A DNA stretch of 64,000 nt from Promethearchaeota archaeon. Its GTDB lineage: Archaea; Asgardarchaeota; Heimdallarchaeia; Hodarchaeales; Hodarchaeaceae. The notes beneath the pieces are model-generated. The model worked only from the letters and a program-made list of their open reading frames with translations. It searched no databases and was not told where the DNA came from. The stretch spans positions 32,001 to 96,000 of the forward strand of contig JBHLMN010000015.1 in NCBI GenBank assembly GCA_048938105.1, written 5' to 3'. This document shows positions 58,950-59,714 of this stretch, in pieces (the first letter of the stretch is position 1; each line of letters starts with the position of its first letter). A program made the position numbers and the translations under genes.

Positions 58950-59053
58950 GCCGCTGTGGCTTAGTTGGTAGAGCGACAGACTTGTAATCTGTTGGCCGTG
59001 GGTTCAAGATATAGGATCCTGATGGATTGTATATGGAATTCCCACCAGCGGCT
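58950..59053 (+). tRNA. tRNA-Thr(TGT) with 31-nt non-canonical T-loop intron (59/60; 59009-59039)
   Basis: GCCGCTG/CAGCGGC acceptor, ACAGA-CTTGTAA-TCTGT anticodon arm. BHB TTCA/TGGA with AGA and ATT bulges; splicing restores GTGGG-TTCAAGT-CCCAC. Confidence 0.92.
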
Positions 59054-59111
59054 ATTGGAGCTACTTCGGAAAGCATACTTAAACTAAACAATAAATGTTA
59101 TGTGACAAGAA

Positions 59112-59534
59112 ATGGAATCATCACAGTTAAGTACTACTTGGAAATACCTTGCTGACGGACAATGCGCTTTTAAATCAGCTGCAACGTCTCCAAAAATGCG
59201 CTGCAATCATCTTTTTACCATTACAGGAACTTGTAGATATATAGATTGCCCTCTTGTTCAACCTGAATTCTACGCATTCCAACAACAAGAAAGCTCAGTT
59301 TATTTGATTAAAAAGGATCCTAAAGCACCCCCTGTTTCGACATGGGGTTTCACCGAGTTACCTGAAGACCGTGAGAAAGCAAGAAAAGTAGTAGAAAAAG
59401 CCATCAAAAAGCTCAATGAAAACTTAAAAGTAGCTATTTGGCGGAAGTTTGAACAACAATTCGATGCTGCAGCCATAATTAAAGCCTCTCAAGAGCTCGC
59501 AGAAGAAGAAGAGGAAGAACTAGATAAAGATTGA
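59112..59534 (+). CDS. mak16: Mak16 (eL28/Mak16 family) ribosome biogenesis factor homologue
   Basis: W..L...QCAFK...C....TITG.C....CPL...YL.KK...W matches the eukaryotic Mak16 N-terminal Cys pattern; acidic tail. Confidence 0.8.
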   Translation: MESSQLSTTWKYLADGQCAFKSAATSPKMRCNHLFTITGTCRYIDCPLVQPEFYAFQQQESSVYLIKKDPKAPPVSTWGFTELPEDREKARKVVEKAIKKLNENLKVAIWRKFEQQFDAAAIIKASQELAEEEEEELDKD

Positions 59535-59561
59535 GAAATTCCATATCATGGTTATTCAGCG

Positions 59562-59625
59562 GCGAAATGATGAAACCTGACAAGGATGAGCTGAGCAATG
59601 AAATCTTATAGTTACTCTGATTCGC
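59562..59625 (+). ncRNA. Box C/D dual-guide sRNA (predicted 23S rRNA H69/H71 targets)
   Basis: Terminal stem GCGAA/TTCGC; C ATGATGA 59567-73; guide AACCTGACAAGG; D' ATGA 59586-89; C'-like ATGAAAT; guide CTTATAGTTACT; D CTGA 59617-20. Confidence 0.85.
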
Positions 59626-59714
59626 ACGTTGTTTTGAGGATTAATGACCTCCCAAATATGGAGTTCACATAAAATTTCACCTACTTCCTTTAATTTCCCA
59701 AGAAAGTCTTTAAT

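Follow-up and report, generated by a model that had tools for sequence, protein, structure and literature searches.

In archaea, helices 68, 69 and 71 of the 23S rRNA are hotspots of 2'-O-methylation (Dennis et al. 2015, BMC Genomics 16:632, PMC4644070). The same study lists IHOsR91, an RNA of Ignicoccus hospitalis that was detected by RNA-seq and whose predicted targets are A2179 of the 23S rRNA for the D guide and G2211 for the D' guide (PMC4644070, Additional file 1). Because A2178 corresponds to E. coli A1912 in the alignment of that study, A2179 is the equivalent of A1913, and G2211 is that of G1945. Thermoproteus tenax sR30 and Pyrobaculum calidifontis sR54 have the same predicted D' target (G2211 = G1945) as the RNA described here, whereas their D guide is directed to U2233 and not to the adenosine of H69 (PMC4644070). 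For Asgard archaea, no catalogue of C/D sRNAs was found in the literature that we searched.

Yeast uses snR63 to guide Am2256, a nucleotide of the H69 loop that precedes Psi2258 (E. coli Psi1915) by two positions (PMC2794176). For Gm2288, at the base of H71, the guide is snR75; together with m5C2278, this yeast equivalent of G1945 is needed for the stability of the 60S subunit (PMC4174444). A reading of the present locus made from its letters without database searches (the sequence-only reading) had named these two marks and their guides as the yeast counterparts, and both papers agree with it.

The locus analyzed here lies in a 64,000-nucleotide stretch of a Hodarchaeales contig (the window). 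Positions 59562-59625 of the plus strand show the full archaeal box C/D layout in the order C, guide, D', linker, C', guide, D and terminal stem, with the letters GCGAA/AUGAUGA/AACCUGACAAGG/AUGA/GCUGAGCA/AUGAAAU/CUUAUAGUUACU/CUGA/UUCGC (Table 1). The sequence-only reading had described a C/D architecture with 5 bp in its terminal stem. The letters bear this out, with a stem that is longer than described: it grows outward from 5 to 10 bp through the pairing of CAGCG (59557-61) with CGUUG (59627-31), leaving one bulge, A59626. Both guide spacers are 12 nt long and do not change in length across the 21 homologs described below. The internal D' and C' boxes, which would form the k-loop, are degenerate, with the GA dinucleotides retained in nearly all homologs. 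CUGA at 59591-94 was considered as an alternative D' box, which would leave an atypical guide of 17 nt, and was dropped. As it is not conserved in relatives, while AUGA or UUGA at 59586-89 is, the latter stands as the D' box. The oligo-T run at 59632-59635 is likely to be an archaeal termination signal.

Table 1. Coordinates of the predicted sRNA, its parts and the gene directly upstream (window positions).
Feature	Position	Strand	Remarks
Mak16-like gene, 140 aa, possible host transcript	59112..59534	+	directly upstream of the sRNA in 21/21 genus genomes
Terminal stem, 5' arm	59557..59566	+	outer CAGCG 59557-61, inner GCGAA 59562-66; pairs with 59621-31
Box C, AUGAUGA	59567..59573	+	UGAUGA invariant in 21/21 homologs
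D' guide, AACCUGACAAGG, 12 nt	59574..59585	+	N+5 nucleotide C59581; core ACCUGACAAG invariant in the genus
Box D', AUGA, degenerate	59586..59589	+	AUGA, UUGA or GAAA in relatives
D'-C' linker, GCUGAGCA, 8 nt	59590..59597	+	2-bp mini-stem G59590-C59596, C59591-G59595; loop letters variable
Box C', AUGAAAU	59598..59604	+	AUGA invariant in 21/21; final three positions degenerate; leaves a 12-nt guide before D
D guide, CUUAUAGUUACU, 12 nt	59605..59616	+	N+5 nucleotide U59612; core UUAUAGUUACU invariant in the genus
Box D, CUGA	59617..59620	+	invariant in 21/21 homologs
Terminal stem, 3' arm	59621..59631	+	UUCGC, bulged A59626, CGUUG
Oligo-T run after the stem	59632..59635	+	T-rich run 5-12 nt past the stem of box D in most of the 21 homologs

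An Rfam search with the sRNA returned no family at threshold. The best match was snoR442 (18 bits versus a cut-off of 50), which was also the only weak match sharing the 3' end of a guide; SNORD41 and sR12 were the other matches below threshold. The folding energy of the sRNA was not better than that of shuffled sequences (z -0.7). Non-significant folding z-scores are usual for C/D sRNAs and are uninformative for this class. The genes of the protein partners are present in the genome: fibrillarin (262.7 bits) and Nop5 (221 bits) are adjacent on one contig (C38), and there are two genes of the L7Ae family.

The stretch of 23S rRNA that the guides would address is missing from the organism's own assembly (G000, 65 contigs), which has a gap over H69-H71 and holds no H69 or H71 sequence anywhere, and the target pairing was therefore read on the 23S rRNA of congeners as a proxy. 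Among the congeners, the H69 region was found only in three genomes (G005, G016 and G001), and it is absent from the assemblies of the closest ones (G007, G009, G015, G003 and G011). In the 5' domain of the 23S rRNA, G005 is 92% identical to the window's genome, and G016 and G001 are 80% identical. The 23S rRNA of all three carries GGGAGUAACUAUAACUCUC and GCCUUGUCAGGUAAG and reads GGGAGUAACUAUAACUCUC...GCCUUGUCAGGUAAGUUCUGAC.

In these congeners, the D guide pairs at 11 of 11 positions with AGUAACUAUAA in the H69 loop, and the D' guide pairs at 10 of 10 positions with CUUGUCAGGU at the base of H71; the window's G59585 lengthens the latter pairing to 11 bp. The two target sites lie 32 nt apart in domain IV. 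In about 4.5 kb of rRNA, the chance expectation is ~0.001 for an exact 11-mer and ~0.004 for a 10-mer. The N+5 rule places the D guide on the equivalent of E. coli A1913 and the D' guide on that of G1945. For the numbering, the congener 23S rRNA was aligned without gaps to rrlH of E. coli MG1655, with U1911, U1915, U1917, U1939 and C1962 as landmarks, and this alignment confirmed both positions. The sequence-only reading, which had called for such an alignment, had placed the D guide antisense to the H69 loop with A1913 at +5 and the D' guide on H70/71 with G1945 at +5. Both assignments held in the congeners, the second at the base of H71, and the 11 and 10 bp found there, as a proxy for the organism's own 23S rRNA, exceed the 9 bp that this reading had taken as the least acceptable complementarity. 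Given that the guide cores are invariant in 21 genomes and that the target is identical in three divergent congeners, there is a strong case that the same pairing would form in the window's own organism.

Several observations on rRNA genes were made along with this comparison. In the window's genome, the 23S rRNA gene is split between the start of one contig, C9:1-1450 (model positions 1-1452), and the end of another, C8:53898-54728 (the 3' part), with ~1.2 kb missing, and the C8 part has an insertion of ~320 nt relative to a congener. At a distance of 18.6 kb from one another, the same contig holds two more pieces resembling the 23S 3' end, C8:27759-28068 and C8:46367-46669 (model positions 2721-2973). 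A 16S match on C9 (L001 1695-2555) takes only 861 bases to span model positions 1-1478, which points to a large deletion within the gene, to masking or to an artefact of assembly. In E. coli, NZ_LR778141.1 holds at 3914870-3917763 a divergent 23S copy of 2894 nt with a changed H69 (CAGUAACUAUAACAGUC) and shifted numbering; this copy is unsuitable as a numbering reference.

When 60 related genomes were searched with blastn, each of the 20 other members of the genus was found to hold a single-copy homolog of the sRNA, with 79-100% identity. The resulting 21 homologs align without gaps, and 38 columns are invariant. These coincide exactly with the boxes and the cores of the guides, namely box C, ACCUGACAAG in the D' guide, AUGA of box C', UUAUAGUUACU in the D guide, and box D. 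The letters of the D'-C' linker and of the stem vary. The 2-bp mini-stem of the linker is kept; at one of its pairs (35-39 in alignment A2), 18 homologs have C-G, one has A-U and one is unpaired, a single compensatory change from C-G to A-U. For the terminal stem, the duplexes formed by the 5' and 3' flanks of the same genome had a mean of -11.1 kcal/mol versus -7.2 kcal/mol when flanks were combined with those of other genomes. The own-flank duplexes being much more stable than the swapped ones, the stem is kept by compensatory change. Stem pairs counted in a fixed register were only weakly above controls; the register of the stem shifts between lineages, which accounts for the weak count in fixed columns. 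As far as comparison of sequences goes, these data confirm the element as a genuine archaeal box C/D guide RNA that is strongly conserved in the genus.

We built a covariance model (R1) from the 21 genus sequences and sampled 150 genomes of the phylum. The same double guide was recovered in 45 of the 150 Asgard genomes, belonging to 15 of 52 genera. An exact-pattern scan of GTDB species genomes gave ~40 archaeal matches beside ~38 matches expected by chance; the record titles of its matches name Hodarchaeota, Heimdallarchaeota, Promethearchaeia (Loki) and Njord-, Baldr-, Thor- and Hermod-labelled MAGs. Apart from a few single matches, the RNA was not found in the sister families of the window's class that were searched, either with the model or with an exact pattern of the D guide.

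For a covariation analysis, ten lineages were available in which the sRNA as well as the H69-H71 stretch is present. In these, the guides form 8-10 of 10 in-register Watson-Crick pairs with the 23S rRNA of their own lineage, and on average fewer pairs with the variant targets of other lineages. For example, CUUGUCAGGU pairs with ACCUGACAAG in the window's genus, CUUGCCGGGU pairs with ACCCGGCAAG in family f21, and CCUUGCCGGAUAA pairs with UUAUCCGGCAAGG in a Baldr-labelled genome; in family f24, CUGUGA of H69 pairs with UCACAG. No other indirect evidence speaks as strongly for a use of the pairing in vivo as this covariation between guide and 23S rRNA.

Some sRNA-like archaeal loci carry the A1913-type D guide in another combination. 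In two genomes of Methanoperedens (L096 and L098), it is joined to a different D' guide. At the archaeal locus L088, the D' guide that accompanies it is antisense to a GGUAGCG stretch of H70. In Lokiarchaeum ossiferum (CP104013.1, L144), the A1913-type D guide is retained next to a D' side that is long and A-rich.

The reading that we favor, and regard as quite probable, is that of a dual-guide box C/D sRNA for the A1913 and G1945 equivalents. In the mechanism that we propose, an RNA of ~64-75 nt would form a k-turn from boxes C and D with the terminal stem, and a k-loop from the degenerate C'/D' pair. Both would bind the L7Ae, Nop5 and fibrillarin proteins encoded in the genome. The D guide, paired to the H69 loop, would set the A1913 equivalent at N+5, the D' guide, paired to the base of H71, would set the G1945 equivalent at N+5, and fibrillarin would 2'-O-methylate both riboses during maturation of the large subunit. 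The sRNA, situated in the 3' region of the Mak16-like gene, would probably be released either from the transcript of this gene or from a short read-through, with its own 3' end at the oligo-T past the stem. We infer expression of the sRNA, assembly of the RNP, methylation at both sites and co-transcription with mak16.

The alternative that survives best accepts a real C/D sRNA and restricts methylation to the D guide, that is, to A1913 in H69, with the D' guide acting as an rRNA-folding chaperone or as accessory pairing. The degenerate D'/C' boxes could weaken or abolish D'-guided methylation: the window has AUGA as its D' box, congeners have UUGA or GAAA there, and of C' no more than AUGA is kept. 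Dual guides on nearby sites have also been proposed as an aid to rRNA folding (PMC4644070), and extra pairing is reported to help methylation (PMC3116282). Against this, the D'-guide core is as invariant as that of the D guide and shows covariation with H71 among the Asgard lineages, with G1945 always in register at N+5. Moreover, the D' spacer is exactly 12 nt, the GA dinucleotides of a potential k-loop are retained in nearly all homologs, and the G1945 site is also the predicted target of three crenarchaeal sRNAs. We hold this restricted role of the RNA to be distinctly unlikely.

Compared with IHOsR91, which comes from a hyperthermophilic crenarchaeon, the Hodarchaeales sRNA has the same box order and both predicted targets, D for A1913 and D' for G1945. 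The guide cores of IHOsR91 are closely similar, with ...CGGCAAG before D' and ...AGAGUUAC before D, and the guide letters differ where the 23S rRNA differs. Its internal boxes read CCGA for D' and GUGAGGA for C'. Beyond boxes and guides, the linker and the stems vary even among Asgard archaea and offer nothing by which descent could be judged. Common descent with IHOsR91, as opposed to convergence on the same pair of targets, cannot be proven from such sequences, which are short and constrained by their target. The sequence-only reading had proposed that one Asgard sRNA may guide two marks. The pair of targets stands as proposed, and the arrangement is not specific to Asgard, as IHOsR91 is predicted for the same two nucleotides. 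With IHOsR91 listed for this pair, the double guide is already a known kind of RNA. With the present locus, an Asgard genome gains a well-supported methylation guide RNA that is probably unannotated. The comparison also shows, through the covariation of guide and target, that a single RNA with guides for both the H69 loop and the base of H71 is kept in many Asgard lineages as well as in a crenarchaeon. Knowledge of how C/D RNPs work is unchanged by the finding.

With snR63 and snR75, the archaeal sRNA shares the two rRNA nucleotides and the mechanism, namely a box C/D RNP acting by the N+5 rule. It differs in that eukaryotes use two separate, longer snoRNAs, whereas in Hodarchaeales one RNA of ~64 nt carries both guides. 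The Rfam search gave no match to the eukaryotic snR63/SNORD46-type and snR75-type families at E up to 10. In the lack of a match to a snoRNA family, only the target sites, and not the RNA genes, are demonstrably common with eukaryotes. A double guide ancestral to TACK and Asgard archaea could be imagined as the direct ancestor of the snR63 and snR75 types, with the marks passed on vertically, the guide split and the residence behind mak16 prefiguring host genes. We consider this an unlikely scenario. If it were true, both eukaryotic marks and their guides would have been inherited vertically from the archaeal host, the dual guide would have been split later, and an sRNA within the transcript of a ribosome-assembly gene in Hodarchaeales would prefigure the host genes of snoRNAs. 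A1913 and G1945 lie at the subunit interface, and A1913 touches the A-site tRNA and the decoding centre. Since, to our knowledge, few rRNA ribose methylations are common to archaea and eukaryotes site for site, this pair is a useful marker in the question of which eukaryotic rRNA marks are older than eukaryogenesis.

The position of the element between two protein genes raises another explanation, in which it would be a cis element of the mak16 3' UTR or of the 5' leader of the THUMP gene (a terminator, or an element of stability or regulation) that resembles a C/D RNA. In keeping with this, the C/D-like element stands 27 nt behind the mak16 stop codon in all genomes of the genus and is bracketed by an inverted repeat (59537-46/59656-65), followed by oligo-T. 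It is opposed by the other Asgard families, in which the same RNA adjoins unrelated genes. The conserved letters, too, are the boxes and the guides antisense to rRNA and not the stems, and the guides track the 23S rRNA of each lineage. Taken as a whole, we find a cis element highly improbable. Chance C/D-like motifs with fortuitous complementarity to rRNA, for which it could be said that short box motifs are common and that no Rfam model scores significantly, are effectively refuted by the comparative data, given conservation in 21/21 genus genomes and 45/150 Asgard genomes, the covariation, and two guide matches that lie 32 nt apart in the 23S rRNA, far beyond chance (~0.001 and ~0.004).

The open reading frame upstream of the sRNA matches PF01778 with an E value of 1.2e-5, below the curated cut-off. 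Its best relatives among solved structures are human and yeast MAK16 (E 3e-5 to 1.5e-4). The alignment to the MAK16 structures spans the N-terminal domain across the Cys-rich segment of Mak16, and no L28e chain was listed. The 140-aa protein consists of the N-terminal Mak16/L28e domain only, Cys-rich and with a short acidic tail; the long C-terminal part of eukaryotic Mak16 is missing from the archaeal protein.

In all 21 genus genomes, the gene order is eIF2-gamma, PIN, (tRNA-Thr), mak16, sRNA, THUMP/ThiI-like and AMMECR1. The whole block being syntenic in the genus, this order says little on a specific link between mak16 and the sRNA. The sequence-only reading had looked to synteny with mak16 in other Hodarchaeales as a check, and the outcome is divided: the order is kept in 21/21 genus genomes, and outside the genus no linkage of the sRNA to mak16 was found. 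There, the neighbours of the sRNA are genes for Roadblock, Arf-like GTPases, DUF123, L35Ae, CYTH and fumarase. The L35Ae case, in a Heimdall-labelled family (f22; G082, L066 1201-1584), has the sRNA 30 nt behind the L35Ae gene on the same strand and is another guide RNA behind a ribosome-related gene.

Within the genus, co-transcription of the sRNA with the Mak16-like gene is plausible in view of the 27-nt gap between the stop (59534) and the stem, the oligo-T behind the sRNA and the same order in 21/21 genomes. A further point is that a search for a promoter of its own turned up no clear TATA element where one would be expected. Among public sequencing runs, no RNA run containing the stretch was found.

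A 10-bp outer inverted repeat, 59537-59546 with 59656-59665 (AAUUCCAUAU / AUAUGGAGUU), brackets the sRNA together with a small downstream hairpin. In the closest congeners this repeat varies in a compensating way, as judged by eye (e.g. CCUAUA with UAUAGG), and in more distant congeners a hairpin over the mak16 stop codon is found in its place. The repeat may be a processing or termination structure.

Upstream of the Mak16-like gene, the window holds a gene for tRNA-Thr(UGU) at 58950-59054 (+), which is interrupted by an intron of 31 nt in the T-loop. ARAGORN made no call in the window, and the Rfam match reached only 29 bits and did not include the T arm. Once the 31 nt of the intron were removed, ARAGORN called a normal tRNA-Thr of 75 nt.
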